A stretch of 64,000 nt of DNA, from NCBI GenBank assembly GCA_002718195.1, contig PBDU01000017.1, positions 53,818 to 117,817 on the forward strand. Reading direction: 5' to 3'. Positions 2,853 to 33,351 of the stretch are shown here, one piece after another; the first letter of the stretch is position 1; each line of letters starts with the position of its first letter. This DNA is from Methanobacteriota archaeon. GTDB taxonomy: Archaea > Thermoplasmatota > Poseidoniia > Poseidoniales > Poseidoniaceae. A program made the position numbers and the translations under genes. Under the pieces are notes generated by a model. It was not told where the DNA came from. It saw only the letters and a program-made list of their open reading frames with translations, and searched no databases.

Positions 2853-2896
2853 TAAGAATACGAGAGTAAAAAAGAGTAGAAATGTGAGATATAAGT

Positions 2897-3958: not shown

Positions 3959-4024
3959 ATTTCAAACGATTCGTGTCGCTTGGTTCAATAAGGAGGGCAT
4001 TCTAGGTAACCATGGGTTGTATAG

Positions 4025-4771
4025 ATGTCTGATATGGATACAGCACTTTCCCTGCTCCAAAATAAGCTTAGAAGACAAATTCTAGAGAGGTTGGTAAGAG
4101 AGCCTCACTACCCAATGCACCTAGCAGATTTAACTGGTGTATCTCAACAAGCCATAGTCAAACATCTAAGGGCGTTAGAACGAGGTGGCTTAGTTCAAAA
4201 AGAACAGGTCCCATCTGAGAAGGGCGGACCTCCAAAAACAGTTTATTCTGTTAATGATTCATTTTCATTAAGAATTGATCTAGGGCCAGATCTATTCAAT
4301 TGTGAACAACGAAAACTACCATCCGGCGGGCCAATGAGGCTTAGCAATAGATTGCCACAATCAGTAATTCCAATCGTAGATTCTGTATCAGGAAGAAAGA
4401 AGATTGCTGTTGGAGAAGGAATGGGATATCTTGGCGAATTAAACGAAGCCATTGAATCCCTAGATAGGCAACGAGACGCTCTTATTGCACTGCACCAACA
4501 AATAAGGGGCAGAATTGGAGCTGCTGTAGAAGCTGACTTCGATGTGTATGAAGAAAGGTCGATAGTTCATTCAATCGTAGAATCGAAGGGACAACTTGCT
4601 GATTTTTCCCGCTTAGCAGATGAGTTAAGATTAGAGACACCCGAATTCAATCAATTGATGAATCAAGTGAGCAAGAGATTAGAACACCAATTTGCCAAAA
4701 GAGCAGGACATGTTGTAGCTGTCAGCCCTACTAGCAGTTTGAAATGGTGGATTAATCCGAGTAAGGAATGA
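4025..4771 (+). CDS. winged helix-turn-helix (ArsR-like) transcriptional regulator with C-terminal coiled-coil extension
   Basis: N-terminal LADLTGVSQQAIVKHLRALERGGLV is a classic ArsR/SmtB-type recognition helix plus wing. Confidence 0.6.
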   Translation: MSDMDTALSLLQNKLRRQILERLVREPHYPMHLADLTGVSQQAIVKHLRALERGGLVQKEQVPSEKGGPPKTVYSVNDSFSLRIDLGPDLFNCEQRKLPSGGPMRLSNRLPQSVIPIVDSVSGRKKIAVGEGMGYLGELNEAIESLDRQRDALIALHQQIRGRIGAAVEADFDVYEERSIVHSIVESKGQLADFSRLADELRLETPEFNQLMNQVSKRLEHQFAKRAGHVVAVSPTSSLKWWINPSKE

Positions 4772-4775
4772 TTAA

Positions 4776-6326: not shown

Positions 6327-6415
6327 TTGAGCGCCTGCCCTGCTCCATATAAACCCCCAATAGGGGATTTTGCATTATGATGGAGGTATTCAGTCTCCTT
6401 ACATTAGCCGAGTAA

Positions 6416-11458: not shown

Positions 11459-11539
11459 CTCATCATACTTAACCGCGACCCCTTCGCGTCATTTTACAAT
11501 TAAATGTAAATCATATGGATTAGGCGCATTGTTTAGTGA

Positions 11540-12172
11540 TTAAGCCCATTCGCTAGGGTCGAAACTTGCCCCAAAAGACATCGTTTCATCAACCTCAATT
11601 TCATGTGTTTCAACCTCATCTTTTGCAGGGCTTTGTTTTGTTTGAACTTTTCTTGCTTTGTTCTCCCAATCATCTACAGGACCCGGTTTTCCTTTACCCG
11701 GGCCATATGAGAATTTGATTTCATGAATTAATGTTAATTTAGCAAGCCATAATTTTCTTAATGAATGCATTAATTCGTTTTTGCTTAATCCATCAAACCA
11801 AATCGGTAGGCTAACATTGAATGCCTGGAGTGATTCTTTTCCGGGTTTCTTGCCCATGTGAATCCCCCAATCAACTCCGCTTTTGATTAGGTTTAATCTC
11901 ATCTCATGCATCCATTCTTTCCAATCTTCTGTAGATTCTTTGATGTGAGTTTCCATCTCTTCTTGCTGCCCAATATCCACTCTGGTCATTGAACTGATAG
12001 CGACTAAATCTCGTCCTTTGGGAACCACGACTGCAAACATGTGACCTTGTTTTCCTCCGGGGTACTTTACAAGAAAGTGTGCTTCTGCCCTTTGATCAGG
12101 TTGCATCTTATAACTTAGATTCTCTTGTTTGAACCATTTTTTTAGCAAATCCACTGCATCGATGGGTCCCAT
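11540..12172 (-). CDS. hypothetical cytoplasmic protein (possibly DUF2299/YbjN-like)
   Basis: Clean 210-aa ORF, no TM; weak resemblance only. Confidence 0.4.
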   Translation of the reverse strand: MGPIDAVDLLKKWFKQENLSYKMQPDQRAEAHFLVKYPGGKQGHMFAVVVPKGRDLVAISSMTRVDIGQQEEMETHIKESTEDWKEWMHEMRLNLIKSGVDWGIHMGKKPGKESLQAFNVSLPIWFDGLSKNELMHSLRKLWLAKLTLIHEIKFSYGPGKGKPGPVDDWENKARKVQTKQSPAKDEVETHEIEVDETMSFGASFDPSEWA

Positions 12173-12235
12173 TACTACAACCCAATACTACAACCCCTTT
12201 GAACCAAACTAATCCGGACTGTCAAGGAATTACTC

Positions 12236-13930
12236 TCAGTACGCTGCTAACTCGTCTTTGATTTCTTTAGAAATCAATAAAATCTCTTCAGAGTATTTTC
12301 TTGCACATTTTAGTCTTCTTAATGCTCTAAAGAAGTCCATGCAAATATCCCAAGACCTTACTGCTAATGAGCAACTTAATCTGAATAACAAAATGATTGT
12401 GACAAAGATCGGGATTGAGGAAAAATAAATTCCAAATCCTTGACCGAAGACCTCATCTAAACCTAGCAATTCACCGTTTAACAAGACCATGGTAGTCAGT
12501 AAACAAGCCATAACAGGCCAGATTATTGTAGAGCCAAATAGTGCAGTTAAAAGATGAAAAGTAGTTCTTGCATCTAGTCCTTCATCGGTATTGTTCCCAA
12601 GAATCTGTCCAAAGAATATTTGAATCCCCATAGACAAAACGAACAGAGGAGAGAAAGCCAAAAACGAGAGCAGAATTATGAAATTGAAAGGTATTTTACT
12701 AGGTTTAAATCTTGATAATTTCTCTCCCGAGTCATCCAAATCTCTGCCATTTAGTTTGTGACTTGACAAGATTGATTCCAACTTTGTTGCACTTTCAATC
12801 ACCGGACATTCCATTTTGTTTGGTCTGGCGCCAGGTTCCCGATTAGCATAATCCCATTGTTCCTTTTCCCTTAGGAACTCCCTGATGGTTCGAGTATTCC
12901 TAACTTCATGATCCCATTGATTGTACGGATTTCCTTCCATTCTTGCTTTGTAGTGTCCGATTAAATTAGCAACACCATGCTCATCATGGGATTCAAAATC
13001 AGGTGTCATTGGGCGTAGCACCTCATGTAGTCTATCTCTTAGGTCAACCACGTTTTCTCGACCGGGTTCAACCCAGTCATTTTGCGAAACAGCCTCAACC
13101 AATTCATTTGGTATGTCTTCTTGCAGTATTTCGATTGGCTTTCCAAATTCAACGTAAGCATCAGTTCTGAAAATATGTCTTTTTCTGAAATGAAGCCCAC
13201 ATGGGACAACCACGGGTATTTGTTTTCCTTGACTTTTTGCAAGGGCAGCAGCAGCCAATACGGTTCTCATTGGTCCGGTTCTAAATTTCATCATCCATGC
13301 ATCTGAATGTGAAGTTCCCTCAGGGAATAATACAACTGAATGACTGGATGCGATTCCTTGAGCCAGTTTTAGCAATGATCTACCATTGAGATAATCTGCT
13401 TCTTCTTGGGTACAACCTCCTCTTAGGAGCTCAGCCTTTCTTAAAACTGGCTGGAATGCCATTCTTTTCGTCCAAAATCTGAGAATCGGTCTAGTAACTA
13501 AATCATGTCTACCAGCTAAAACAAAGTAATGCGGATGGGAGACATAAATGCACATTGGATCGACAAGACCATTGGTGTGCCATGCACAAACCATATTCCC
13601 TCTGTCGATTGGGATGTTTTCAATTCCTGATACATGGTCTTCTCTGAATAAGCCATACCTTACCTGTTGTAGTAGAAACATCCCAAACTTCGTCCAAAAT
13701 GGTGACCCTGGGGTTTCCTTAGAAAAATCTGGAAGTGGCGCATCTAATAATTTTTGAATGTTAACATTGGATGAAGACTTTGACAAAATAGGCAAAAGAT
13801 CACCATTTTGATCCACAGCCCCGTCATCCAAAGTCTCGATTTTTGCCAAGATCAAACCTCCATCAATTTTGAACTTAGATTGGATAATGAAGCATGGTCG
13901 GGGGATAGTCCAGTAGGCGAATTGGGCCAC
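12236..13930 (-). CDS. lysophospholipid/glycerol-3-phosphate acyltransferase family (PlsC-like) protein with C-terminal multi-TM domain
   Basis: Acyltransferase block I-like AWHTNGLVD (H-x5-D variant) and block III FPEGTSHSD; C-terminal about 150 aa contains 4-5 hydrophobic helices. ORF-track start overlaps HIT gene by 79 nt so true start is probably downstream or uses an alternative codon. Confidence 0.7.
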   Translation of the reverse strand: MAQFAYWTIPRPCFIIQSKFKIDGGLILAKIETLDDGAVDQNGDLLPILSKSSSNVNIQKLLDAPLPDFSKETPGSPFWTKFGMFLLQQVRYGLFREDHVSGIENIPIDRGNMVCAWHTNGLVDPMCIYVSHPHYFVLAGRHDLVTRPILRFWTKRMAFQPVLRKAELLRGGCTQEEADYLNGRSLLKLAQGIASSHSVVLFPEGTSHSDAWMMKFRTGPMRTVLAAAALAKSQGKQIPVVVPCGLHFRKRHIFRTDAYVEFGKPIEILQEDIPNELVEAVSQNDWVEPGRENVVDLRDRLHEVLRPMTPDFESHDEHGVANLIGHYKARMEGNPYNQWDHEVRNTRTIREFLREKEQWDYANREPGARPNKMECPVIESATKLESILSSHKLNGRDLDDSGEKLSRFKPSKIPFNFIILLSFLAFSPLFVLSMGIQIFFGQILGNNTDEGLDARTTFHLLTALFGSTIIWPVMACLLTTMVLLNGELLGLDEVFGQGFGIYFSSIPIFVTIILLFRLSCSLAVRSWDICMDFFRALRRLKCARKYSEEILLISKEIKDELAAY

Positions 13931-19169: not shown

Positions 19170-19616
19170 ATGGCAAATATAAGAGACATTCAATTTGAGG
19201 ATTCAGAAGGGAATAAAACATCATTAAACCAAATAACAGATAAAAAAATCGTTGTCGTAAATGTGGCAAGCGCTTGCGGCTTGACCCGACATTATTCCGG
19301 CTTGCAAGAACTTGCAGACAGTGGACATCAAGTGGTAGCCTTCCCTTGTAATCAATTCGGGGGTCAAGAGCCGGGCACAATTCAGGAGATTTGTGAATTT
19401 GCATCTTCCAAATATTCTGTAACATTTCCTATAATGGCAAAAATCGAGGTAAATGGGGATTCACAAATTCCTTTGTACACCGAATTAAACAAAGCAACCG
19501 ATTCAGAAGGGCACACAGGCGAAATACGCTGGAATTTTGAGAAATTCATCGTAGATGTTGATGGAAATGTTTCCAGATTCGCACCAGCGACATCACCCTC
19601 AGATTTACCTCTGTGA
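19170..19616 (+). CDS. glutathione peroxidase (Cys-type)
   Basis: VVVNVASACGLT peroxidatic Cys motif, WNFEKFIV; ORF-track TTG start at 19104 overlaps cyclophilin; ATG at 19170 (MANIRDIQF) fits GPx N-terminus. Confidence 0.88.
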   Translation: MANIRDIQFEDSEGNKTSLNQITDKKIVVVNVASACGLTRHYSGLQELADSGHQVVAFPCNQFGGQEPGTIQEICEFASSKYSVTFPIMAKIEVNGDSQIPLYTELNKATDSEGHTGEIRWNFEKFIVDVDGNVSRFAPATSPSDLPL

Positions 19617-20471
19617 TTGTAGTCCCTTGATTCGATTTTCCCTGTGAGTTTGGGCAATCCATGCTTTACCCATCTCGATTCCGAGAAGATAATCTCTGGT
19701 TAGTTCAATATCAGTACCACCTAGTCTAGAACATGACAGACTCTGCACAGGTTGTATTTGTTGAATTTTCAAACCCTCAGGAGGGTTTTCTATTAGATCC
19801 ACAGTATCATTGTAAACATCTGCTCTACTCAGAAGTGCCTTTGATAATTCTGGCATACTTCTCTTAAGTAATCTAGACATTAGTTTTGATGATTTACCAT
19901 CGTTTCGGTAACCTGTGGGTCTTGACCGAATTACTAGAATCTCAGTGGCTCCTAAATCAATTGCAGTTTGCAGAGGAATGGGCATTGTAATACCGCCATC
20001 AAGGAATCTTTTTCCATCGATTTCTATTGGATTTCTAACTACCAAAGGTAATGCAGAGGTTGCCATAATAACATGCTTCAGGTCTTTTTTGGTTGGTTTA
20101 TTCACCTCTAATTTTCCAGAGTCAACATTTGAAAGAGTTGCGTAAAACTCCTTTTTTGGGTTTGAGAAAATTTGTTCAATATCAAGCGGCTGAATTTCCT
20201 CCCCTATCTCGAAGAGCAAATCTAAATCTAGGAAATCACCACCTTTCAAGAAGTCTGAGAAACGTTTGAATGCACTTTTTGTTCTTGGGTCTTTCAGAAT
20301 TGTAATAGATCTCATAGGCTGTTTTGCTAAATAACTTGACAGCAGAATTGCTCCTGCAGATGTGCCTAGATGTAGGTCGAAGTTGACATCATTATCGGCC
20401 ATAAAGGCATCTAAGACTCCGGCTGCAAATGCTCCTCTTAGGCCACCACCCTCGACAATTATCGCTTTCAC
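19605..20471 (-). CDS. patatin-like phospholipase
   Basis: Oxyanion GGGLRGAFAAG, nucleophile elbow GTSAGA (GxSxG), catalytic DGG in RFLDGGITMPIP. Confidence 0.85.
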   Translation of the reverse strand: MKAIIVEGGGLRGAFAAGVLDAFMADNDVNFDLHLGTSAGAILLSSYLAKQPMRSITILKDPRTKSAFKRFSDFLKGGDFLDLDLLFEIGEEIQPLDIEQIFSNPKKEFYATLSNVDSGKLEVNKPTKKDLKHVIMATSALPLVVRNPIEIDGKRFLDGGITMPIPLQTAIDLGATEILVIRSRPTGYRNDGKSSKLMSRLLKRSMPELSKALLSRADVYNDTVDLIENPPEGLKIQQIQPVQSLSCSRLGGTDIELTRDYLLGIEMGKAWIAQTHRENRIKGLQSQR

Positions 20472-20576
20472 GGTTTAATTATTACACCGGCTGTATATCA
20501 AACTCTTCCTTAATTGTCTAACTTTATTGGTAAAAATCTAGGATGATAATATAAGCAAATAAGAACACATTAGAGC

Positions 20577-22343
20577 ATGAGCGAGAACCAAGCAATGACT
20601 GAGGAGCAAAAGAAGAAAGCTCATTTTGGCTATCAGATGTATGACTGGGCAAGGTCAGCGTTTGAAACATCAGTAGTTGTTGCTATTCTCCCAGTTTGGT
20701 TCGTATACCTATTTATGCAAGCAAATGGACAAGAAGTCTCAATTGCTGGTATGACACAAACCGCAGATGGATTATTTGCTTTCATAACGGGTTTGGCTGC
20801 TATTTCAGTAGCCATTCTCAGCCCTGGTTTAGGAGTAATTGCTGATAGGATTCCAGTAAAACAAGTGATGTTGCGTTGGTTCACCATAGTTGGAGCAGGA
20901 GCAACTATCCTACTGGGTGGGGCAATTATACTGCCAATGGAAGCAAAATGGGTTTGGCTTGCAGTAATGTTCTTTTTATCAAATGTAGGAGCTAATGCAG
21001 CAGGCGTATTCTACAATTCACTGCTTCCTCATATTTGTGAGACCGATGAGGAACTTGATAGAGTTTCGACAAAGGCTTTCATGTATGGATACGTAGGCGG
21101 TGGTCTACTATTGGCCGTTCATCTTGGTCTAGTTTTAGGAGTAACAGGGGATTGGGTAGTACCGTTTTGCTTGTCTTCATCCGGTGTTTGGTGGTTTGGA
21201 TTTGCAATTTACACCTTCAAAGGAATTCCAGAACCTGAAATTGTGAACCCAATTGAAAATTTATCATTAGGCAGCGCGACCAAATTAGCACTATCTGAGA
21301 TAGCAAAAACAATCAAAGATTTCCGCAGTACCTACAAGGTTCTTGGTTTGTATCTCATCTCCTACCTATTATTCATAGATGGAATAATTAGTGTTACGGC
21401 CTTAGGAGGAATCTATGGAGCATCAGTTTTAGGAGTTCCAGAAATATCGAACATGGCAGTCATTCTTCTAATTCAATTCGTAGCCTTTCCATCTGCTGCA
21501 TTTTTCATTTGGTTCGCAAAGAAGACTTCAACCAAAACCACAATTATAGTCACATGTGCATTATGGTGTGTTGTTATTTTAGGGGCAGTAAGTTTCGCCC
21601 CCCTTGCTCTGGAAAATCATGAAGATCACGATTTCATGGTCGTGCAAAATGAGGACGGGATCTCATTTACAATTTCAGTTGATTACGAAAATTTCTCGAT
21701 AGCATCTGGTGAAGCCGGAAGTGATGCTGAATTTAGGAATGCAGTATCATATTTGTATCCTCCAGAAGAAGTAAATTCAACTACAGAATTGTATGAATTC
21801 ACGGGAGAAAGTAGGATTCTGAATCAATCTGAGTTGGATGAGTTACTACAATATTTGCCGAGTACAAGATTTTCCTTGTCAGTTTCTAATGGCGAAGAGT
21901 TTGAATCATTCCTTGGCGAAGATCATCCTGTAAGCCTTGGAGATGGTTACATAGACGCCATACCAATTTGGACTAGAGACAATATTTGGCAACCCATGAA
22001 TATTGGAATTTCAATTCAATGGTTATTGATTGGCTTAGGAGCTGGCTTTTTGTTAGGTGGTAGCCAAGGAATGGCGCGTTCATTATTCGCTCAAATGGTG
22101 CCTGAAAGCAGAAGTGCTGAATTCTTTGGATTCATCGGATTCTTTGGAAAGGTTGCAGCATTCATAGGTCCGTGGATGTACGTTGCAATTGGTAACGTAG
22201 CGGATTCAAGGACCGCTATCATGTCGATTTTGATGTTGATCGTAGCAGGTGTAATTCTGCTATTCTTTGTTGATGTAGAAGAAGGAGCAAGAGTTGCCGC
22301 AGAAGAGGATGCTAAGTATAGAGCGGCTCAATCCGAAGATTAA
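20577..22343 (+). CDS. MFS transporter, Atg22/UMF1-like family
   Basis: N-terminal YQMYDWARSAFETSVV signature typical of UMF1/Atg22 family, about 12 hydrophobic helices with a large central soluble insertion. Confidence 0.65.
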   Translation: MSENQAMTEEQKKKAHFGYQMYDWARSAFETSVVVAILPVWFVYLFMQANGQEVSIAGMTQTADGLFAFITGLAAISVAILSPGLGVIADRIPVKQVMLRWFTIVGAGATILLGGAIILPMEAKWVWLAVMFFLSNVGANAAGVFYNSLLPHICETDEELDRVSTKAFMYGYVGGGLLLAVHLGLVLGVTGDWVVPFCLSSSGVWWFGFAIYTFKGIPEPEIVNPIENLSLGSATKLALSEIAKTIKDFRSTYKVLGLYLISYLLFIDGIISVTALGGIYGASVLGVPEISNMAVILLIQFVAFPSAAFFIWFAKKTSTKTTIIVTCALWCVVILGAVSFAPLALENHEDHDFMVVQNEDGISFTISVDYENFSIASGEAGSDAEFRNAVSYLYPPEEVNSTTELYEFTGESRILNQSELDELLQYLPSTRFSLSVSNGEEFESFLGEDHPVSLGDGYIDAIPIWTRDNIWQPMNIGISIQWLLIGLGAGFLLGGSQGMARSLFAQMVPESRSAEFFGFIGFFGKVAAFIGPWMYVAIGNVADSRTAIMSILMLIVAGVILLFFVDVEEGARVAAEEDAKYRAAQSED

Positions 22344-23722
22344 CCCCAATAATACGTCCAATAGAGTATGTTTGCTACTACTATGACCACAATTCCCATT
22401 GGGATAGATACGATTGCTCCCCAGCCCTGTGGCTTTCTATTTGTTGTGAATCCCATTATGCCGGTTGCTAATATGCTAAAAACTGAAAAAATTGGCATTG
22501 CTACAGTAGCGACATCATACATAAGCCATTCATTGTCTGTAATTACTTCACTTTCGTCAAATACGAAAAATGAGACAGAGATTACATCCATCTCTTCTGG
22601 AATAGCTATCCAAGCGGTCTGGTTTTCAGAATAGATATTCCCAATTTGGACAGTAGTGTATTCAATTTCATAATTCGGGGCACACTGGAAAAATTGATTA
22701 TAAGAATAAGATTCGCAATTGTAATCTATCCAAACGGTTGAATTATTCTTTTGATAAGAAAAACCGCCGCTCAAACTAACTATGCTATGATATTCAGAAA
22801 GGTCGTAAAAAATACCGGTTGAATTATTCTCGATGCTTGGCATGATATCTTCTACTCTTTCCCAATTGCCGTTTTCGGTTCGATAACTAAGCATTAACAC
22901 TCCATCTACAGATAAGTTTTCACCAGGAATGGAAATAATTCCATCATCGAGAGTAATTCTGTTAAGGTCATAATCTATGTCTAGGTAATGGTAAAACACT
23001 CCTGTTACCGGAGTTTCGTAATAATATCCACCGTAATCGTAGTATGTCTCTTCGATATAATAATCTGTTGAATCCCAACAGTCGATGACATTTTGTTGGC
23101 GGTAATGAGAAATAGATGGATCATAGAAAGAACAAGAATATACGAATTGGTCTGAACTCAGTCCTAGTTCGAACATCTGCAGTTCACTGGTTGATTGATC
23201 AATTGGTAAATACACCTCGCTATATTCAGAATCCCAACTATTTCCAGCATACGGGTCTGTGCTTATGATGATGATCGCAGATAGAATAAAAACCGCAGTC
23301 GGGATTCCTACGCCTATCAAAAACTGTTTTGTCTTTTCTCCATTTTTTGGCTTCTCATTCTTATGATCCCACAAACCCTGACCAACTGAACCCGAGATAG
23401 TTCCGCCAAACATTTGTTGATTCTGCATCATAATCTGGTTTGGATCAATTGGATTCTGAACTGAACTTCGGGCTTGATTGTTCAGAAGATTTTGATTCGT
23501 TTGGATTTGTTGCTGCATATTATCTGTGTTGAATTGCGCAGGATCTGCAAATCCCATACTGATGCCATCAGCAAATATATTTCCAACACCCTTTGGATCA
23601 TCTCCACCATCAAGGGGGTGACCTGGACCCAGTGTCATGTAGCGACTTAGAGGAATTTTTGATTTGAATATTTCTCCAGTTCGCAGGTAACTGCATCTAG
23701 GAAATTCGGGGAGCACTGGCAT
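22340..23722 (-). CDS. hypothetical membrane protein with Q/N-rich N-terminal region, Tyr-rich extracellular domain and C-terminal TM helices
   Basis: QQQIQTNQNLLNNQARSSVQNPIDPNQIMMQNQQMF low complexity; TM FLIGVGIPTAVFILSAIIIIST; YYDYGGYYYETP; two C-terminal hydrophobic helices. ORF start overlaps pckA stop by 26 nt; internal Met likely. Confidence 0.45.
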   Translation of the reverse strand: MPVLPEFPRCSYLRTGEIFKSKIPLSRYMTLGPGHPLDGGDDPKGVGNIFADGISMGFADPAQFNTDNMQQQIQTNQNLLNNQARSSVQNPIDPNQIMMQNQQMFGGTISGSVGQGLWDHKNEKPKNGEKTKQFLIGVGIPTAVFILSAIIIISTDPYAGNSWDSEYSEVYLPIDQSTSELQMFELGLSSDQFVYSCSFYDPSISHYRQQNVIDCWDSTDYYIEETYYDYGGYYYETPVTGVFYHYLDIDYDLNRITLDDGIISIPGENLSVDGVLMLSYRTENGNWERVEDIMPSIENNSTGIFYDLSEYHSIVSLSGGFSYQKNNSTVWIDYNCESYSYNQFFQCAPNYEIEYTTVQIGNIYSENQTAWIAIPEEMDVISVSFFVFDESEVITDNEWLMYDVATVAMPIFSVFSILATGIMGFTTNRKPQGWGAIVSIPMGIVVIVVANILYWTYYWG

Positions 23723-25295
23723 TTACCGCATCAGAAACTCCATTTGCATATCTCTTGAAATTTTCATTGAACATATTTGCCAATTTATCTGCAGTAGCAT
23801 CATATTCCGAAGCATTAACCCAAGTGTTTTTGGGTATCAAAACCTCACTCGGGACATCTTTGCAAGATGTGGGAACTTCAAATCCAAACCTTTCATCGAC
23901 CACAAACTCGACGTCATCAAGGTCTCCATTAAGAGCAGCATTCAACATTGCTCTAGTGTACTTGATTTTCATTCTTGAACCAACTCCGTAAGCCCCTCCG
24001 GACCATCCTGTGTTGATTAGCCAAGCAGTTGCTCCATGCTCTGCCATTTTTTCGCTAAGAAGGTCAGCATATACACCTGGGTGCATTGGCATGAATGGCT
24101 CTCCAAAGCAGGCTGAGAAAGTAGCTTGTGGTTCTTTTACACCAACTTCTGTTCCTGCAACCTTTGCAGTATAGCCAGAAATGAAATGGTATGCTGCTTG
24201 CGCTGGTGTTAATTTTGAGATAGGAGGAAGCACTCCAAACGCATCACAGGTTAGGAAAATCACATTTTGAGGATGACCACCTTTAGAATCAGCGGTTCTG
24301 TTGTCAATGAATTCAATTGGGTAAGATCCTCTAGTGTTCTGAGTTTTAGAGGTGTCATGGAAATCTGGGACTCCGGCATCATCTAGGACAATATTTTCAA
24401 GCACAGTTCCGAATTTTCTAGTTGTGGCAAAAATCGCTGGTTCGTCTTCCTCGTTTAGGTCGATTAGTTTTGCATAGCATCCGCCCTCGAAGTTGAATAC
24501 TCCATTTGCTCCCCATCCGTGCTCATCGTCACCGATTAGGGCACGGTTAGGATCTGCTGATAGGGTAGTTTTTCCGGTTCCGGAAAGACCGAAGAAAATT
24601 GCAGTATTATCGCCGGTGGTGTTTGCAGAGCAGTGCATAGGCAGGATTCCCTTCTTTGGTAGAATCAAATTCATTACGCTGAAGATAGATTTCTTGATTT
24701 CTCCAGCATATCTTGTTCCACCAATGATTACTTCCTTTGCATCATAATTGACTATTACAAAGCAGTGAGAATTAACTCCATCCACCTCAGGGTTAGCCTC
24801 GAAATGCGGTGCGTGTAGAACCGTAAATTGCGGTTCATGTCTACTGAGTTGGTCTTCGGTGGGCCTGATGAACATGTTTCTTGCGAAAGCATTGTGCCAG
24901 GCATTGTGGTTTACCACTCTAATCGGGAGTGCCTCGGACTCTTCAGCACCGCAATATAGGTCTTGAACGAATAGTGCATCTCTTTTGCTTAGGAAATCAA
25001 CAACTTTTGCTCTGAGGTTGGTGAAAGTCTCTAAGTCGGTTGAAACGTTGACGTCTCCCCAATTTATATCACCTTCAGTTGTTGCTTCTTTGACTATAAA
25101 TTTGTCATTTGGAGATCTTCCGGTTCTTTCTCCGGTTTCAGTTACAAGAGCTTTGTGCGCAGAATATTTCCCTTCTCCCCTTTCGACTGCTAATTCAATA
25201 AGAGATTGGGCATCTAGGTTGTGATAAATATTCCCGGATGGGTTCACGCCTAACGATTTTAACTCTGAACGGACGGCTATGTCAGCGTCGGTCAT
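23697..25295 (-). CDS. pckA: phosphoenolpyruvate carboxykinase (ATP-dependent)
   Basis: Kinase-1a FFGLSGTGKTTLS, LIGDDEHGW, INTGWSGG; N-terminus MTDADIAVRSELKSLGV aligns to bacterial PckA start; ORF track extends 46 codons further to 25433. Confidence 0.93.
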   Translation of the reverse strand: MTDADIAVRSELKSLGVNPSGNIYHNLDAQSLIELAVERGEGKYSAHKALVTETGERTGRSPNDKFIVKEATTEGDINWGDVNVSTDLETFTNLRAKVVDFLSKRDALFVQDLYCGAEESEALPIRVVNHNAWHNAFARNMFIRPTEDQLSRHEPQFTVLHAPHFEANPEVDGVNSHCFVIVNYDAKEVIIGGTRYAGEIKKSIFSVMNLILPKKGILPMHCSANTTGDNTAIFFGLSGTGKTTLSADPNRALIGDDEHGWGANGVFNFEGGCYAKLIDLNEEDEPAIFATTRKFGTVLENIVLDDAGVPDFHDTSKTQNTRGSYPIEFIDNRTADSKGGHPQNVIFLTCDAFGVLPPISKLTPAQAAYHFISGYTAKVAGTEVGVKEPQATFSACFGEPFMPMHPGVYADLLSEKMAEHGATAWLINTGWSGGAYGVGSRMKIKYTRAMLNAALNGDLDDVEFVVDERFGFEVPTSCKDVPSEVLIPKNTWVNASEYDATADKLANMFNENFKRYANGVSDAVNASAPRIS

Positions 25296-25470
25296 GAACC
25301 CGCCTCTCGCGCCCCTTCTTAGTGCATTTCGGTTAGAAGTGATTACAAAATCCGGTGTAGCCAGTAACACCGCTTCTCCGAACCCTATAATCGGGAATCG
25401 CCTGAATAATGGAATCATTGAGGTTTTATTCACAAATAGGTTTCAATATTAAGTCCCCAAGGGCTCTTTC

Positions 25471-28400
25471 ATGAGCAAAGACTCGTCTGATAATTCAGAT
25501 GAGTTGATTCGAAAGAAAAATTTTGGTAGAGCAACAGGAATTGACCTATCAGCATTTAATCTAAATCAGGATGTTGTTGAGAATAAAGAACCAGAACCCA
25601 AGCAAGAAATTCAGGAGCCTGAAATGGACCAAGCGGTTGGTGAAGTATACGAATTTTTCACAGAGGGTAAACAGGTTACAGAGGATAATGTTGAACAATT
25701 CGATAGCGTGACGGATTTCGCAGTTCAAGGAGAGAGTAGAGTAAGCGGTGGCTTGCTTGTCATGATGATTCTAACATACTCCATATTCGCAACATTGATC
25801 GGAACTGTGGTTCCTCAATTTATTGCGGCACCTACATTAGTAGCTTTGATCGTTAGTGGATTATACCTTGGCGAGCGTTGGATTCCAAACCCAAACATGA
25901 GGCTACTCGGTGTTACTTGGGTTATCATTTCTATGAAAATATTCTATGGTTTAGCAATCGATGCTCATCATTGGGGTTGGTTAGATGGGTTTGGAGTGGA
26001 TGAGGATATTGTTCTTGGAATTTCATTACTAGCCATAGTTGCTGTAAATGTATTCATCGCCCAAAGGCACAATGAGGACGCAATTGCTGCTCAGGCAACG
26101 CTAGTTCTTCTTGCAGTAGGTAGTGCTGCAGGAGCGATTTATGGGGAAATGGGCGTTGCAGTTATGATTTGTCTAGGAGTGATCTTATTCCATGTGCTTG
26201 CCTTTTTGAGAAATTCAGGTAATCTTGCAAGCCTTGGCATAGCAACATCATATCTATGGGTCGGTTTACATGCAATCTCGCAAAATTGGAAAATTGCAGG
26301 CATTGATTTCGTACCGTTTGAGGATGATTTGCTATTGTTCATCTTAATGTTCTTTGTCACAGGTATAAATGCCACCGTTGCAACTAGATTTTCAAGCGAA
26401 AGAAATTGGTTCTCGGATGGCTTTGAGGCACTAGGTCTTGGTAAACCCGGTCTGTGGTCAGTTTCTGTTGGTCTGGGAATGATTGGGGCATTTTTGGCCT
26501 TAACTGCATTTAGGGACCAAACCGGTTACGCATTGGCGCAATTGAGCTTACTTGGGTCTGCGTTCAGCGCGTCTTATCTTGTTGTGAGAGGAGTTTCCTG
26601 GAATAAGGTGATTGCATTTGTAGGATATCCTGCACCGATCTTACTAGCAATTCTAATTTTGATGACAGGGAGGGATACTGAACTATTTGGAGTTCTTTCC
26701 GGTTATGATGTATATTCTGTACTAACAGTGGTTTTGACCGGCTTTATTTTACTTCAAAATCAGACCAATGTTTCTGATCAAGTCATTTGGGGAGTGGGCG
26801 TTTCAGCCGTGCTTATTTTGACGATTTTAATCCCAGCCGAGGATTATTCCGGGGCAAGAATGTTGCTATACTCCCAGGCAGTTGTTTGGATTGGCATGGG
26901 CGCGTTGGCGCTTTTGAGAAAGTCGGCTGGTATTGCTGGCTTTTCTGTATTAGGGCCTTGGATTTGGTTGCTAATGGTTGCAAGTGGAGCAGAGGATAGA
27001 ATCATCTCAGTGGAAATTCTTCCTACTAATTTCCCAGAATATGATATGACCGCTGTAATTATTCTCATGCTTGTTCAGCAATATACAGTCAACGCCAAAT
27101 TAGGATCTACTAACCTCAATTTAGCAGCCGCAGTACCGGGGTTGAGTGAATTCGGTGCAAGGCTAAGAGATTCTAACTTCATGAATCTCTGGAATATAGG
27201 ATTCATTGTAGCATTGATTTCAATAAGTGCAATAACTCAGCCAGAAAAAGTACCAGCAGTTGGATTAATTGTTGCATTGAATTTGTTAGTAGTAGCGCAT
27301 GCAGCTATGGCTTATTTCCAAATTCATAGGGGAAATCCAAGGACCTTACTGGGTATATGGGGGGCATTTACGATAGTAATTTCATGGGTTTTTGGATACT
27401 CTCCATTCTGGACTCTCGGCTTGTTTATTGCCGTTCTACTGTTACTTCTTGATTCGGATAGATTGTTGCGTACTGATATTGCAAAACTCGATTTGGAAGC
27501 AAAAGAAGCGATGCCAGCAAAATTACTTACCATGTCTATGGGTTTGGTGGCAGGATATCTAATCGTTCTAATTTTAGAGCCGCCCAAACAAATCTATCTT
27601 ACCGGATATGACCTAATTTCTGATCGCGCTCTAGAAGCACAGTATCTAGGGTTTATTTCAGTCGGAATGTTGCTTTTGTATCTCAGAAGAGCAGCGAAAT
27701 TGGAGAAATTATTACCTCCTACCATATCTGCAGTTGGAATGATAATCTGCATTGCTTTGGCTGGGGGAGTATATGATTCACAAGAACTTCAGACGCTTGC
27801 AGCGGTAGTCTTTGTCGGCTCTGGACTTTGGTTGATATCACAAGGAGAAATACGCTCTTCAATGCGGTCTTTGGCAACAATTAACGAAAGATTACAGAGG
27901 CACCAGCTAATGTCCGAAGTTAATTACATGGAGTCAACTGTTGATGTTAGGCAAGATTCAAATCAACCCCCTAAGAGTCAACCAGTTCCAGAAACAGTGT
28001 TGAATGCGTCTCAAATACAAACAGAAGAAGTATTCGCAGCACAGCCCGAGCCACCTGGCGACTTTGAAGTTAGCACACCTTCAATACAAGCATTTGATGT
28101 AAGAAGTATTGAACTACTTGAAAAGCAAAAGAAGCGCGCTAAGCGTAGGTCAGTTGAAAGTGAGTATGACCTAATAGTCGGTGACATAAGTTACAATCCG
28201 ACAATCGTTATCTTATTCTTAGCAGTGTTGCAGTTATTTGGAATACTTGTTGCTTACAGCGGAACTAGTACTACGTTTATTCCCATTCTCGTAGTAGGTA
28301 CAATATCCGTCATGCTAATATTTGTAGCAAAACAAAGGGCTAAGTCATTCAGTCTTCGTTTGCCGGATTTATTAGGTCTCGAAGCTCCAATCGCAGCCTC

Positions 28401-29385
28401 AATGATAGGGCTTTCAGTAATTCTGTTGGCTGGCAGGATTGGATTAAGCCCAGTCTATATTGACGATCAACTAGATAGTATGTTTCTATTAGTGTGTTTA
28501 TCTGGATTAGCAGCTATAAACCTGATCGGTTTTTCAGATAAGAACCTCAGGTTATTGAGCTCATTAGAAGGTGTTGTTGGCTTGTATGCATTTGTGAGAA
28601 TAATCGGTTTATTTGCAGGAGGAGAAATGCCAATTCCATTCCGCATTAATCCCTTTGAAAATCCAATTTCATGGTCTGTTCCAATGCTAACCACTGAGAT
28701 ATTTCTCATAGGTGCTGCTGTTCTGTTTTGGAGTATTGAATCAAAGCATTTTGCTGAAGGGAGAGAAGATGTTAGGGGCGCAGGCGGCAGAATTGGTTGG
28801 TTTGCTCTGATTTTCATTCTCTCTTCTGGAATTGCCTCTTTGATTGCCTTAGTTTGCGTACTGAATACAGGAATAAAATGGAAACAACCAGCAGTTGTTT
28901 TGTCCACCTTTGTTTGTGTGCCCGCTTCGGTTTCACAACTACTATTCTGGCTGGAAGAATATATCCAATTCATAGAACCACTAGATAGATGGCATGTCTC
29001 AATTGCTTTCGGAGCAATATCTATGATGTCTCTTGTATATGTTATCAAAGAAAAGCTATCATTATGGCTTTCAACTTCAATTTGGGCAACTCACCTTCTG
29101 CTTGCATTTGCATCTTTCACTGGATTTGGATACAGTGGAGTTGTGGTGGCAATGTTGGTTTTGTCAGCATGCGCTTGGATACCCGGAGTTCTTACAATGC
29201 GCCGTGGTTGGAGATTGTTTGGAATGGTGGATTTGGTAATTGCATGGACAGTTATGGCTTCCGAATTGATGAATGGAGCCAGTTCAATTCAGGCATTGGT
29301 CATGTTGACAGCGACGATAGTTCTGCTCAGTGTGATTACTTACCTGACCCAATCACGAGAACAAGATATCATGGAATCATCATGA
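25471..29385 (+). CDS. giant polytopic integral membrane protein (1304 aa, roughly 30+ predicted helices), function unknown
   Basis: Continuous ORF with periodic hydrophobic 20-aa segments throughout, acidic N-terminal cytoplasmic region and one approximately 130-aa basic/polar central loop; no catalytic motif recognised. Confidence 0.6.
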   Translation: MSKDSSDNSDELIRKKNFGRATGIDLSAFNLNQDVVENKEPEPKQEIQEPEMDQAVGEVYEFFTEGKQVTEDNVEQFDSVTDFAVQGESRVSGGLLVMMILTYSIFATLIGTVVPQFIAAPTLVALIVSGLYLGERWIPNPNMRLLGVTWVIISMKIFYGLAIDAHHWGWLDGFGVDEDIVLGISLLAIVAVNVFIAQRHNEDAIAAQATLVLLAVGSAAGAIYGEMGVAVMICLGVILFHVLAFLRNSGNLASLGIATSYLWVGLHAISQNWKIAGIDFVPFEDDLLLFILMFFVTGINATVATRFSSERNWFSDGFEALGLGKPGLWSVSVGLGMIGAFLALTAFRDQTGYALAQLSLLGSAFSASYLVVRGVSWNKVIAFVGYPAPILLAILILMTGRDTELFGVLSGYDVYSVLTVVLTGFILLQNQTNVSDQVIWGVGVSAVLILTILIPAEDYSGARMLLYSQAVVWIGMGALALLRKSAGIAGFSVLGPWIWLLMVASGAEDRIISVEILPTNFPEYDMTAVIILMLVQQYTVNAKLGSTNLNLAAAVPGLSEFGARLRDSNFMNLWNIGFIVALISISAITQPEKVPAVGLIVALNLLVVAHAAMAYFQIHRGNPRTLLGIWGAFTIVISWVFGYSPFWTLGLFIAVLLLLLDSDRLLRTDIAKLDLEAKEAMPAKLLTMSMGLVAGYLIVLILEPPKQIYLTGYDLISDRALEAQYLGFISVGMLLLYLRRAAKLEKLLPPTISAVGMIICIALAGGVYDSQELQTLAAVVFVGSGLWLISQGEIRSSMRSLATINERLQRHQLMSEVNYMESTVDVRQDSNQPPKSQPVPETVLNASQIQTEEVFAAQPEPPGDFEVSTPSIQAFDVRSIELLEKQKKRAKRRSVESEYDLIVGDISYNPTIVILFLAVLQLFGILVAYSGTSTTFIPILVVGTISVMLIFVAKQRAKSFSLRLPDLLGLEAPIAASMIGLSVILLAGRIGLSPVYIDDQLDSMFLLVCLSGLAAINLIGFSDKNLRLLSSLEGVVGLYAFVRIIGLFAGGEMPIPFRINPFENPISWSVPMLTTEIFLIGAAVLFWSIESKHFAEGREDVRGAGGRIGWFALIFILSSGIASLIALVCVLNTGIKWKQPAVVLSTFVCVPASVSQLLFWLEEYIQFIEPLDRWHVSIAFGAISMMSLVYVIKEKLSLWLSTSIWATHLLLAFASFTGFGYSGVVVAMLVLSACAWIPGVLTMRRGWRLFGMVDLVIAWTVMASELMNGASSIQALVMLTATIVLLSVITYLTQSREQDIMESS

Positions 29386-31041
29386 CATTCTAAGTTCTAA
29401 TAACTTTGAAACTTCGTCGATTAAGGAATCGATAGCATCCTTGTTATGGTAAGAATCCATTCTAATTGAAATAGAGATTTTTTCTTGAGTTCCAGAATTT
29501 CTTATTCCAATCGAAATGTCTCTAGAGTCTATTTTTGCCTTTATCCTCATTAGGTTTTTTTCTCCTTCAACTCGATCTCTTGCCCAATTTTCGACACTGA
29601 AATTTTCCTCTAAATACTGCCTGAGCAGTACTTCAACTTCATCGCTTAACTCATTCAATCCATCCCACTTAGATCTTTCAACGCCATTCACTGATTTTCG
29701 ATTTTTATATCCTCTTTCAAGAACCGGGAATGTTGAGGGTTGAGCTAGCGCAGAAAGGTATGCAATCAGGCTCGCAACCCCATCGCCAACCAAACTGAAT
29801 GTGTTTTCTTGTGAAGGATGTGGACTTGGCAGAACCAAGTGTCCAGAATCCTCAACTCCTATCATCATTGGATAATCATCACTAGATATTAATCCACCAG
29901 CATTTTTCAGTCCTAAGGCAAAAGCCAGCCATCTGTCTCCTACAGCCGTTTCGTCGGCTAAATATGTACAATTCAATCTTTCAAGATCAGTCAAAAGCGA
30001 AAGTTCTGATTCTATACTTGCAGCAACATGTAGGTGATTGGTTTTGGTTGCCATAGATCTCAGGATTACATCTGCCATTTCATCCCCATCAACAACTTTG
30101 ACACCAACGTCAGTTGATTTCAGAAGCAAGCATCTATCCCCATCTCCATCCAAAGCAGCAGCTAATACAATTCCAGGCGGAGCCTTATCGAGTAGCCGAA
30201 CAAGCGAATGTTGCGAGTTTTCAACCTCTTCCCAAGTCCAAGAGTCATTAGGAGACAACTCCCCAGCCCCGCAATTTTCATTCATAGCATTCGCAAAAGT
30301 CGAAATTTCATGATTCCTAATTCCTCTTTTTTCGAGAAATTGCGAGAGCCAATAATGTGCAGAACCTTTTGAAGAATCCAAAAGCAGTGGGGCTGCTACC
30401 AACCCATCACCTTGTAGGTTTGAGATTATTGAGCCGTAATTGATTTCAAAACCAGTAAGTCGCTTATTCATCCACTCTCTATGTGTTTCAGTAGCCCAAG
30501 AGTGCTCAATATCATTTCCTGAATAGTCCGTGTCAGGAATCATCATTTCCTCTTTGTGAGTCGCATCGATAGATCTCTCTTCGTTTGCAAGACCAAATGC
30601 GGTTTGGGTTAGTGTTTCTTCAATCTCAGGAAATGTCTTGTAACCATTTTCATCAAAAATTTTCACACCAGAGTCAGAAACTGGATTATGTGATGCAGTT
30701 ATCATACATCCTGCAGCGCAACCGAGTTTGAGAGTCGAGTAGTGCAACAGAGGAGTAGCACATATACCGATATGAATTACTTTAATCCCAACGGATTTTA
30801 GCCCAAGGGTTAGATGACAAGCCAACGTTGCATTATTTGGGCGCTCGTCCCATCCAATCACTACGGTTTCAGAGGTTTTTGAAAATAAGTTGATGCAATG
30901 ACCAAGGCTTTCTCCAACCAAACGCATCAAACCAGGTGTGACTTTTCTGTCATTACTGAAAGCGTGTAGGCAATCTAAGTCTTCTAAACCTGAAATTTCC
31001 ACTAGTCCTCTTATTCCATCAGTTCCGAATAAGTTCTGCAT
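29380..31041 (-). CDS. glmM: phosphoglucosamine mutase / phosphomannomutase family (alpha-D-phosphohexomutase)
   Basis: N-term FGTDGIRG, active-site Ser CMITASHNP, metal-binding ALDGDGDR, sugar-binding GVEDSGH; approximately 100-aa C-terminal extension. Confidence 0.85.
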   Translation of the reverse strand: MQNLFGTDGIRGLVEISGLEDLDCLHAFSNDRKVTPGLMRLVGESLGHCINLFSKTSETVVIGWDERPNNATLACHLTLGLKSVGIKVIHIGICATPLLHYSTLKLGCAAGCMITASHNPVSDSGVKIFDENGYKTFPEIEETLTQTAFGLANEERSIDATHKEEMMIPDTDYSGNDIEHSWATETHREWMNKRLTGFEINYGSIISNLQGDGLVAAPLLLDSSKGSAHYWLSQFLEKRGIRNHEISTFANAMNENCGAGELSPNDSWTWEEVENSQHSLVRLLDKAPPGIVLAAALDGDGDRCLLLKSTDVGVKVVDGDEMADVILRSMATKTNHLHVAASIESELSLLTDLERLNCTYLADETAVGDRWLAFALGLKNAGGLISSDDYPMMIGVEDSGHLVLPSPHPSQENTFSLVGDGVASLIAYLSALAQPSTFPVLERGYKNRKSVNGVERSKWDGLNELSDEVEVLLRQYLEENFSVENWARDRVEGEKNLMRIKAKIDSRDISIGIRNSGTQEKISISIRMDSYHNKDAIDSLIDEVSKLLELRMS

Positions 31042-32097: not shown

Positions 32098-32904
32098 TTA
32101 ATTCACATCTAGGACCTCATCAAAAACAAAGGATGAACCTCTCCGGAATAGGTCCTGATGAAAATTTCTCTGATTGATGTGTTGGACTCTTGCAAGTTTT
32201 CCTCTGTTGTTGTAGGAACCTCTTCTTGTGTGCAGTGGGACGAAAACATCATTCAAATCAAGAATACTGCCCTCAATTTCTGTTAATTCATTTGCTACGG
32301 TTTCTTTTTCACCATCATAAGTGACGGCAGAGGAGGAAATTTCTGGGATTTCGGCTTCGTGTAAACGTATGACTCCCTCGCCAATTTTTGCAGGTTTCCA
32401 AGAACCTTTCATTCCGTTATCCAACCATTCAAACATTTTTTTCATTTGTGGCTTTGTAGCAAAGCCAAGGTATGTGCTTTCTCTCCAATTTTCAGATCGT
32501 GCTAGTGTGACATGATGCACACCTGGATTAGAATGTCTAGAATCTAAGCCATCAGACCAAACCCTACACAATCCATCAATTACTACTCTAAAAATCGGCA
32601 TAGATCCAATTCTAAGGTTTGACAAAGCCCAAGGATTTGCAAGTTCTCCTAGTAACAGAATTGGAAATCTATCCTTCATGCCAAGCTCATTTTTCTCTTC
32701 AAGCATTGAATCAACTGATTTCTCACCAACAATAAATTGGGAAATTTTATGTCTTAAATCATCTAAACTTTGAGGGCCATTTTCCCAAATTTGTATGTTC
32801 ATATTCTGTATTTTTGAATCCGAGTAAAAGTAGGAAGAATCTGTCAAGGGGAGAGGGGATGTATTAGGATTGTATAGCCAAAGTCGTGGAGAAACTTCAT
32901 CCAT
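32098..32904 (-). CDS. hypothetical protein (268 aa)
   Basis: Clean ORF, soluble, no motif recognised. Confidence 0.4.
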   Translation of the reverse strand: MDEVSPRLWLYNPNTSPLPLTDSSYFYSDSKIQNMNIQIWENGPQSLDDLRHKISQFIVGEKSVDSMLEEKNELGMKDRFPILLLGELANPWALSNLRIGSMPIFRVVIDGLCRVWSDGLDSRHSNPGVHHVTLARSENWRESTYLGFATKPQMKKMFEWLDNGMKGSWKPAKIGEGVIRLHEAEIPEISSSAVTYDGEKETVANELTEIEGSILDLNDVFVPLHTRRGSYNNRGKLARVQHINQRNFHQDLFRRGSSFVFDEVLDVN

Positions 32905-32943: not shown

Positions 32944-33351
32944 TTAGTTATTGAAAATCGATTCACTACCACAAGCGGGGCAGGTTATCTTGATGGGTCG
33001 AATTGATGGAATTCCAAGAGGTGCGCTACAAGTAGGACAAAGAATTGCTTCCGTGACTTGTTGCCTATTTTGCACAGCGTCTTGAGATGGGTTGTAATCA
33101 AACCTCATTCCCGATTTGTCAATTCTTTGTGGAGTATTTGCTACTGTTCCAAAATTTGAATATTCCTTTTCTGATGATTGAATTGTATCTAAGGGTGAAT
33201 TTTGTCCTGCAAGATTCGGTAGCATTGCCTCAATTTGCTGCGTAGAAATACCATATATCCTAGATGCAGTATCAATCTCTAATACTCTGTCGTAGCCGGA
33301 CAATTTTGCAATCCTGGCTAACTCTTCCCTTGGGATTTCTGCCATAATCAA
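32944..33351 (-). CDS. small HTH plus C-terminal zinc-ribbon protein
   Basis: N-terminal REELARIAKLSGYDRVLEIDTASRIYGISTQQIEAML HTH-like; C-terminal CPTC-x17-CPAC. Confidence 0.4.
   Translation of the reverse strand: MIMAEIPREELARIAKLSGYDRVLEIDTASRIYGISTQQIEAMLPNLAGQNSPLDTIQSSEKEYSNFGTVANTPQRIDKSGMRFDYNPSQDAVQNRQQVTEAILCPTCSAPLGIPSIRPIKITCPACGSESIFNN

Follow-up and report, generated by a model that had tools for sequence, protein, structure and literature searches.

In Piezo mechanosensitive channels, 38 helices with both termini inside (N-in/C-in) make an extended array within the membrane, and a long helix lies in the cytoplasm beyond an internal block. Transmembrane hairpins of many chains or of fused copies are joined into rings in the c-rings of ATP synthases, one example being the single-chain 13-hairpin rotor of Methanopyrus kandleri. 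Designed helical repeat proteins (THR/DHR and circular tandem-repeat proteins, and TMHC8_R, a de novo 16-helix transmembrane pore) are artificial, strictly repetitive in sequence and, except for TMHC8_R, soluble. The DUF2339 and DUF2070 families contain predicted membrane proteins of very large size, with hardly any loops and without assigned function, and GT-C proteins and Mrp/complex-I antiporter-like subunits have many helices and conserved polar residues in the membrane. The natural protein described here has points of likeness to these systems, and no known family or solved structure corresponds to it.

The protein is encoded in the window, i.e., the whole 64,000-nucleotide stretch of DNA analyzed, whose positions are used throughout. 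Its reading frame was previously described as single and uninterrupted; it begins with ATG, contains 0 internal stops and specifies 1304 aa. Compared with a relative in L056 (91% amino acid and 82% nucleotide identity over a gapless alignment of 1200 codons), dN/dS is 0.05. Full-length homologues number several hundred, of which at least 120 are listed, with full-length relatives ranging from 1199 to 1486 aa. The low dN/dS and these homologues indicate that the frame is a real gene. We are highly confident of the joint claim that the gene is real and that its product has the 38-helix identity and topology given here. The gene and its parts are as follows:

25471..29385, forward strand: gene for an orphan 38-TM membrane protein, 1304 codons plus stop (ORF list, homologues, dN/dS)
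25471..25746, forward strand: acidic N-terminal tail, residues 1-92, predicted cytoplasmic (second AlphaFold2 (AF2) model, conserved columns, charge count)
25747..27849, forward strand: predicted N-terminal membrane block TM1-TM24, residues 93-793 (AF2 helices, positive-inside topology)
25816..26589, forward strand: conserved core TM2-TM10, residues 116-373 (conservation across 28 diverse members)
27850..28200, forward strand: predicted cytoplasmic loop, residues 794-910, 117 aa (AF2 pLDDT and secondary structure, indel map)
28120..28149, forward strand: conserved polybasic patch EKQKKRAKRR, residues 884-893 (alignment consensus)
28201..29337, forward strand: predicted C-terminal membrane block TM25-TM38, residues 911-1289 (AF2 helices, topology)

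A Kyte-Doolittle scan found 35 clear hydrophobic peaks and 2 weaker ones, while the boundaries predicted by AF2 define 38 helices of membrane length, 24 of which precede the big loop and 14 follow it; the earlier estimate of about 30 or more was thus right but low. With these 38 helices, short loops on the cytoplasmic side carry 17.7 K+R versus 5.0 on the opposite side. AF2 helices and the positive-inside rule together give an N-in/C-in orientation and place both the 92-aa tail and the 117-aa loop on the cytoplasmic side. Loops are mostly 2-20 residues long, and those on the outer side do not exceed 19 aa. The models and charge distribution show a protein predicted to be almost wholly membrane-buried, with both ends in the cytoplasm. 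Its acidic tail, first put at about 90 aa, is about 92 aa long and carries 9 K+R and 22 D+E. AF2 predicts disorder for residues 1-49 and a helix prolonging TM1 for residues 79-92; between them, residues 50-67 form a conserved motif with weak structure (D53, A55, G57, F63). The basic loop, initially described as about 130 aa, has 15.4 K+R per sequence and includes the polybasic patch, for which the family consensus is EKQRKRxKR. Within it, a helix continuing TM24 to about residue 828 is predicted, then a linker (828-874) that is variable and disordered, then a second helix; the helix that extends from TM24 into the cytoplasm is 58 residues long.

The preliminary description had recognized no domain, and our searches agree with it: the best Pfam and NCBIfam E-values were about 0.1, far below curated cut-offs. 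Scans of the protein, of 28 members and of the core alone against Pfam, NCBIfam, PADLOC and PHROGs returned nothing except one sub-threshold DUF2070 match (PF09843; 20.4 bits versus a cut-off of 30, residues 642-855). This match occurred in P0003 only, with none in the other 27 of the 28 members, and was treated as noise. DUF2339, named beforehand as a family that might account for the protein, was found neither at E <= 10 with the protein nor at E <= 1 with the 28 members. PDB sequence profiles gave no matches to the whole protein or the core, and no sub-block had a sequence match to the MFS, APC/LeuT, RND, MOP or antiporter-like superfamilies. Unlike GT-C proteins, the protein has no large extracytoplasmic loop or domain and no outer-face acidic motif, and its conserved residues do not make the Lys/Glu axis of antiporter-like subunits; neither group is matched by family (Pfam, NCBIfam) or fold. 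A search for internal duplication had also been proposed. Comparisons by hhalign of the N against the C half, of ten segments of roughly 110 aa and of nine four-helix units (78-sequence alignment) yielded nothing significant. The two halves have no detectable relationship to each other, and the best internal pair, U2 and U4, fell short of significance (hhalign probability 52%, P 1.4e-4).

The family is carried by 435 species-level GTDB genomes; the 80 of these that are listed are MGII-type MAGs, except for 2 labelled bacterial. When 1.84 billion (1.84e9) representative proteins were searched exhaustively with a profile, 205 matches were obtained, and the 150 listed are all members of the 38-TM family or fragments thereof. 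Halves encoded as separate genes were not seen among the matches listed. All named relatives seen belong to Candidatus Poseidoniales (Marine Group II), with members from Poseidoniaceae and Thalassarchaeaceae. The gene is a single-copy, vertically inherited signature gene of that archaeal order. The most divergent member, P0238, used as a query, retrieved 4 relatives only and gave no bridge to another family. The remaining carriers so far are a few metagenome contigs without a name. Carriers with 58% GC (L090) and 70% GC (L089) also occur. In the surface ocean, Marine Group II is one of the most abundant groups of archaea, and we know of no cultured representative. Many hypothetical membrane families specific to Poseidoniales have been reported in general (PMC9258230). 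Our literature search found no paper on the 38-TM protein or on natural transmembrane solenoids.

The gene is flanked by the following features:

23697..25295, reverse strand: ATP-dependent PEP carboxykinase (PEPCK) gene, divergent (Pfam PEPCK_ATP, E 2.8e-216)
25296..25470, no strand: divergent intergenic region common to the gene and PEPCK (sequence)
29380..31041, reverse strand: phosphohexomutase-like gene, convergent, context only (Pfam PGM_PMM_I/III; coordinates)

Of the family's neighbours, PEPCK is the most persistent, divergent in five of the six lineages examined; its adjacency is retained at the P0092, P0002, P0143, P0140 and P0133 loci. We placed the PEPCK start at 25295 because its homologues are 532 aa long. 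The intergenic region contains two A/T-rich TATA-like stretches, TTTTATTC (25424-25431) and AATATTAA (25445-25452), which are candidate promoter elements only. No conserved adjacent partner gene was found at the loci examined. The 249-aa genes beside P0143 and P0238, considered as such a partner, have no relationship with one another or with the gene beside P0133.

Conservation is strongest toward the N-terminus: 62 of 280 columns are at least 90% identical in TM1-10 versus 3 of 221 in TM17-24. Conserved residues of the core are E135, R136, W137, W150, K156, W168, N193, R199, H200, D203 and Q208, followed by H241, R247, S249, N251, W263, H267, N300, N312 and W313, and by W329, S332, S368, Y369 and R373. 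The core motifs are retained even in P0238, which is 20% identical. Invariant polar and Trp residues of TM2-TM10 lie mostly in the cytoplasmic leaflet, with a few polar ones at the outer ends, and K156 is a mid-membrane lysine. A rhomboid-like Ser/His arrangement (G-S218-A-A-G with H241) was rejected, since the topology puts S218 and H241 at opposite membrane depths. In TM1-24 the odd helix is more conserved than its even partner in 10 of 12 hairpins (Wilcoxon p 0.0024), with conservation scores of 0.79-0.81 for TM3/5/7/9 and 0.58-0.65 for TM2/4/6/8. The sole indel within the membrane blocks is a hydrophobic insertion of 45-55 aa, roughly the length of a hairpin, which three distant members carry at a single site.

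AF2 models of the protein are confident (pLDDT 84; pTM 0.65 and 0.76). Foldseek searches of solved structures with them, a check proposed in advance, matched no known transporter, GT-C or Piezo fold. The best matches were soluble or designed alpha-helical repeat proteins, including circular tandem-repeat designs; no natural membrane protein was near the top, and those present had E-values of 0.2-1 only and TM-scores of at most 0.15. Confident models whose best matches are helical repeats suggest that 19 transmembrane hairpins are arranged as a row in two layers, and the stronger conservation of odd helices supports the two layers. The helices would then make one continuous two-layer alpha/alpha solenoid of 19 hairpins in the membrane plane, without transporter-like bundles. 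We lean slightly toward this architecture. The protein differs from designed repeats in having no significant internal repeat, and no evolutionary relationship connects them. With c-rings it would have in common the idea of transmembrane hairpins forming a wall in two layers, with constraint differing between inner and outer helices; however, the obvious repeats, the one carboxylate per hairpin and the ATP-synt_C match of c-subunits are not seen here.

The clustering of invariant polar and Trp residues in TM2-TM10 leads us to infer a working site there, with a weaker extension to TM15. A belt in the cytoplasmic leaflet, made of invariant Asp, Asn, Gln, His, Arg, Ser and Tyr and about ten Trp, would bind a small polar or amphipathic ligand from the cytoplasmic side and then conduct it or handle it chemically; candidates are ions, lipid head groups and lipid-linked sugar phosphates. 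The 23-28 less conserved helices could serve as a rigid in-membrane scaffold, and the acidic N-tail and basic loop as cytoplasmic docking or regulatory elements. This mechanism is tentative and less likely than not. As a whole, the combination of a signature gene, a solenoid and an N-terminal working core is our best explanation, although we consider it somewhat less than an even prospect.

Another possibility, which we regard as rather unlikely, is that the entire protein is a passive scaffold or fence in the membrane. The hairpin row, perhaps curved or closed, would arrange or enclose lipid or partner proteins, or stiffen the envelope, with the conserved layer as a docking surface. Such a role is consistent with fold matches that are all scaffold-type helical repeats, circular tandem-repeat designs among them, with one conserved and one variable helix layer, and with a very large, single-copy protein of the order that has no soluble domain. 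However, the invariants are ionisable and polar residues buried close to the cytoplasmic leaflet, together with a lysine at mid-membrane, which is likelier for a binding or catalytic site than for a packing surface, and a conserved partner gene does not adjoin. Strong conservation of the core is in itself also compatible with a protein-protein docking surface.

The solenoid could also be an AlphaFold idealisation of several ordinary transporter-like or enzyme-like helix bundles fused in one chain, which seems unlikely to us. The alignment has little depth (Meff about 36-47), and mean-field direct-coupling analysis of 257-270 sequences did not recover even sequential helix contacts. An apparent enrichment of i+1/i+2 couplings proved to be a gap artefact; after gap filtering, top pairs followed the background distribution. 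Given the shallow alignment and the absence of a coupling signal, the AF2 packing depends in large part on learned priors, and the arrangement could be idealised. The 117-aa loop would provide a natural break between bundles. A fusion, suggested previously from the size of the protein, is not supported: the N-to-C architecture is constant in every full-length relative, down to 20% identity.

A cell-surface glycan role, offered earlier as a guess from the neighbouring genes, fares worse. It would make the protein a translocase or flippase for glycans or lipid-linked sugars, working with adjacent sugar-nucleotide genes. Its support is synteny: four lineages have PGM/PMM-like and LbH nucleotidyltransferase-like genes downstream, and P0143 has a PGM-like gene without LbH. 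At its cytoplasmic interface the core also has many invariant Trp, Arg, Asp, Asn and Gln, which are typical of residues that bind sugar phosphates. However, the genes are convergent and the PGM-like gene overlaps the stop codon of the 38-TM gene by 6 nt, so co-transcription is impossible, and PGM/LbH genes are absent next to P0140 and P0238. There is no family or fold match to GT-C, MOP or Wzx, extracellular loops are minimal, and the invariant residues are mainly on the cytoplasmic side. We consider this role distinctly improbable.

A Piezo-like tension sensor or channel, in which a long in-membrane helix array carries a beam-like cytoplasmic helix, is more improbable still. The protein has the helix count and N-in/C-in orientation of Piezo, though the count alone is not diagnostic. 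It also has the predicted extended array with the long TM24 helix entering the cytoplasm after an internal block, and the similarity of U2 and U4, although weak, is in register. In contrast to Piezo, it has no cap, its TM37-TM38 loop being only 4 residues, no blade fold match and no demonstrated four-helix-bundle units; it is half the size of Piezo and has the opposite conservation gradient. Piezo sequence similarity was found neither in Pfam nor in the PDB profile search at E <= 10.

An assembly or frameshift artefact uniting two genes, a caveat of the preliminary description, has a negligible chance, as hundreds of independent assemblies and 435 species genomes have the same 1200-1486-aa frame and purifying selection acts on the whole length of the protein.

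Returning to the solenoid with an N-terminal working core, its boldest form would make the protein the first natural single-chain transmembrane alpha-solenoid: 19 hairpins in a two-layer arc or ring, with one layer and an N-terminal polar site conserved, invented once, kept by every MGII lineage and having a membrane function outside known families. This full statement is doubtful. If the model is correct, the protein would enlarge the small set of membrane-protein folds by a new architecture and would be a natural counterpart of designed transmembrane repeat proteins. For cryo-EM and heterologous expression the family offers a well-defined target, and it can be used as a clean phylogenetic marker of the order. 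Its single copy, strong purifying selection and presence in 435 species genomes, with all named relatives in the order, suggest that it likely does something central to how Marine Group II archaea build or use their membrane.

The ORF list and a hydrophobicity scan bear out the preliminary description of a very large membrane protein gene, both in coordinates and in character:

25471..29385, + strand: membrane protein gene, ATG start, 1304 codons, no internal stop

In a 19-residue Kyte-Doolittle scan the protein is hydrophobic from end to end except for residues 1-92 and approximately 794-910. Alignment with the closest species-level genome (L056) is free of gaps over 1200 codons, with 91% amino-acid identity, 82% nucleotide identity and a dN/dS of 0.05; the gene is no statistical accident. 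Against 5.8 billion proteins, a word-indexed search gave 600 matches, and nearly all of the 120 listed are 1290-1335 aa long with 42-99% identity at 97-100% coverage; their source records, from Candidatus Poseidoniaceae or Poseidoniales, carry no annotation beyond 'hypothetical protein'. When 1.84 billion cluster representatives were searched exhaustively with an HMMER profile, only 205 proteins passed E <= 1e-3; roughly 25 of them span the full length (1200-1486 aa), the remaining listed matches are fragments of this family, and no protein of different build was present among the 150 listed. Since full-length relatives of the same build recur across these searches, the artefact that had been considered, a frameshift or fusion joining two genes, is excluded. 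The gene is real, and ancient within its order.

With each GTDB species represented by one genome, a scan found a relative in 435 genomes, and the 80 carriers listed are Marine Group II-type MAGs except for two labelled bacterial. These two, labelled Rhodobiaceae bacterium and Salipiger bermudensis (L072, L078), have copies of the typical Poseidoniaceae-like type (42-43% identity), most likely by contamination or mis-binning of archaeal contigs. Cluster look-ups place deeper branches in Poseidonia and Thalassarchaeaceae. The most divergent member, P0238, shares 20% identity and retains the core motifs; only four relatives were found when it was itself the query. By these search results and carrier taxonomy, the family is a signature gene of Marine Group II archaea, present in single copy. 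Two outlying homologues are located as follows:

L090 (jgi:3300022665), 2834-6457: P0238 gene, contig of 58% GC
L089 (ena:ERZ26167216 ctg495766), 8001-12461: 1486-aa homologue, 3.0 Mb contig of 70% GC

For a relative of Marine Group II, the GC content and genome size of L089 are out of the ordinary.

The earlier statement that the protein has no recognisable domain holds: Pfam, NCBIfam, PADLOC and PHROGs gave no family match, and 28 diverse members scanned against family libraries had no match in common. DUF2339 and DUF2070 membership was rejected, as DUF2339 was not matched and DUF2070 was matched only in homologue P0003, below threshold (20.4 bits against a cut-off of 30). Neither the whole-protein profile nor that of the conserved core matched a PDB chain at E <= 0.001; at E <= 10 the former had a single insignificant match (E 5.1) and the latter none. 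No significant internal sequence repeat was found in the protein.

Two AlphaFold2 models were built with 75-78 homologues in the alignment:

Residues 91-1290: mean pLDDT 83.8, pTM 0.65
Residues 1-810: mean pLDDT 83.0, pTM 0.76

Helix boundaries are the same in both, with 38 membrane-length helices, 24 ahead of the large loop (TM1-24) and 14 behind it (TM25-38). TM24 continues into the cytoplasm as a 58-residue helix, and disorder is predicted only at residues 1-49 of the tail and 828-874 in the centre of the loop. When loops are assigned alternately to the two sides of these helices, the side with the N-terminal tail, large loop and C-terminus carries 17.7 K+R per sequence versus 5.0 on the opposite, acidic side, so the protein is N-in/C-in with 38 crossings. 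Foldseek against the PDB returned only soluble alpha-solenoids (SKI3, importins, exportins, TPR proteins) with TM-scores of 0.1-0.29. Fold matches included a circular tandem-repeat protein (381 residues at 4.3 A) and THR2 (185/201 residues at 2.6 A), followed by HEAT, TOG and ARM proteins; the top 60 contained a de novo 16-helix pore as the sole membrane entry and no natural membrane protein. The predicted fold is thus a row of helix hairpins that follow one another in sequence and form two layers.

Independent checks of this architecture came from family conservation. Mean identity is 0.79-0.81 for TM3/5/7/9 versus 0.58-0.65 for TM2/4/6/8, and the odd helix is more conserved in 10 of the 12 hairpins of TM1-24 (paired Wilcoxon p 0.0024), an alternation expected from two layers in different environments; the difference is absent in TM25-38. 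Among members at 20-99% identity, the only indel inside membrane blocks is a hydrophobic insertion of 45-55 residues, about one hairpin, at a single site after residue 395-405 (window ~26653-26685), adjoining the short TM11. The homologues P0133, P0143 and P0238, which have this insertion, probably gain one transmembrane hairpin and thus reach 40 helices; all remaining indels lie in cytoplasmic loops. The alignment behind the model is shallow, and mean-field coupling analysis (Meff ~36) gave no signal even between sequential neighbours, so the model has no backing from detectable co-evolution.

The upstream neighbour, transcribed divergently, encodes an ATP-dependent PEP carboxykinase (PEPCK):

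23697-25433, - strand: PEPCK mechanical ORF, 578 aa, GTG start, over-extended

PEPCK homologues are 532 aa, and the conserved sequence begins at Met47 of this ORF (start 25295), so the divergent intergenic region is ~175 bp and not 37 bp. Downstream, a convergent phosphohexomutase-like (PGM-like) gene overlaps the stop of the membrane protein gene by 6 nt, followed by an LbH nucleotidyltransferase-like gene.

Neighbourhood of homologues (identity to the 1304-aa protein; divergent PEPCK; downstream PGM-like; LbH)
P0002: 74%; yes; yes; yes
P0092: 44%; yes; yes; yes
P0133: 37%; yes, 225-aa gene between; yes; yes
P0140: 28%; yes; no; no
P0143: 27%; yes, 249-aa gene between; yes; no
P0238: 20%; no; no; no

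The PEPCK/PGM context is lost around P0238, which has a HisKA_7TM-PAS histidine kinase on one side and, on the other, a Ser/Thr-kinase-like gene with an HRDLKPSN motif. The 1486-aa gene of L089 lies in nearly the same PEPCK / PGM / LbH / CBS / primase / DUF373 order. In the P0143 lineage (L086 3347-4096, L087 3198-3947) the intervening 249-aa gene is membrane-like and lies on the strand of the large gene; it bears no relation to the 225-aa gene that occupies the corresponding position in L089. The large gene is a lone transcription unit. Its sole persistent neighbour, PEPCK, shares the intergenic region 25296-25470 with it, and we read this adjacency as retained core-genome synteny, at most weak evidence of co-regulation. 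The initial guess of a role in glycan handling keeps its neighbourhood support and gained no other.

Further ORFs in the window are conserved hypothetical genes of the order:

22340-23722, - strand: 460 aa, no Pfam match
32098-32904, - strand: 268 aa, no Pfam match
32944-33351, - strand: 135 aa, no Pfam match

In the 74%-identical relative L004 these three positions are taken by genes of comparable length (446, 268 and 134 aa), and in the 44%-identical L001 this also holds for the two smaller ORFs. At 19605-22343, a patatin-like phospholipase with DUF6363 is divergent from an ATG22-like MFS transporter, a pair also found in L004. Across the whole window (1-64000), neither a tRNA gene nor an Rfam family reaching its gathering score was found.

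Conservation is concentrated in TM1-10 (mean identity 0.66; 62 of 280 columns at >= 90%), versus 0.42 in TM17-24 (3 of 221 columns) and 0.44-0.50 in TM25-38. Near-invariant residues are polar or Trp and, by predicted topology, most lie 0-7 residues from cytoplasmic helix ends:

E135-R136-W137, W150, N193, R199-H200-D203-Q208, H241-R247-S249-N251, N300
N312-W313-S315, W329-S332, S368-Y369-R373, Q431-S435-D436, R483-S485-S487

K156 is placed mid-membrane, and W168, H267 and W499 at or near outer helix ends. From the polar and Trp pattern near cytoplasmic ends we infer what it suggests, a site handling a ligand, ion or lipid head group and open to the cytoplasmic leaflet. The remaining helices would then act as scaffold, and our working mechanism, tentative and rather doubtful, is an active core that faces the cytoplasm and sits on this hairpin-solenoid scaffold.

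Piezo shares helix count and topology with this protein but differs from it in sequence, fold, cap and conservation gradient. The c-rings and other hairpin rings are conceptual analogues built from repeats, whereas this protein has none. GT-C enzymes and known transporter superfamilies failed both family and fold comparisons. The protein belongs to no known family, and for its predicted architecture the PDB offers no natural precedent.
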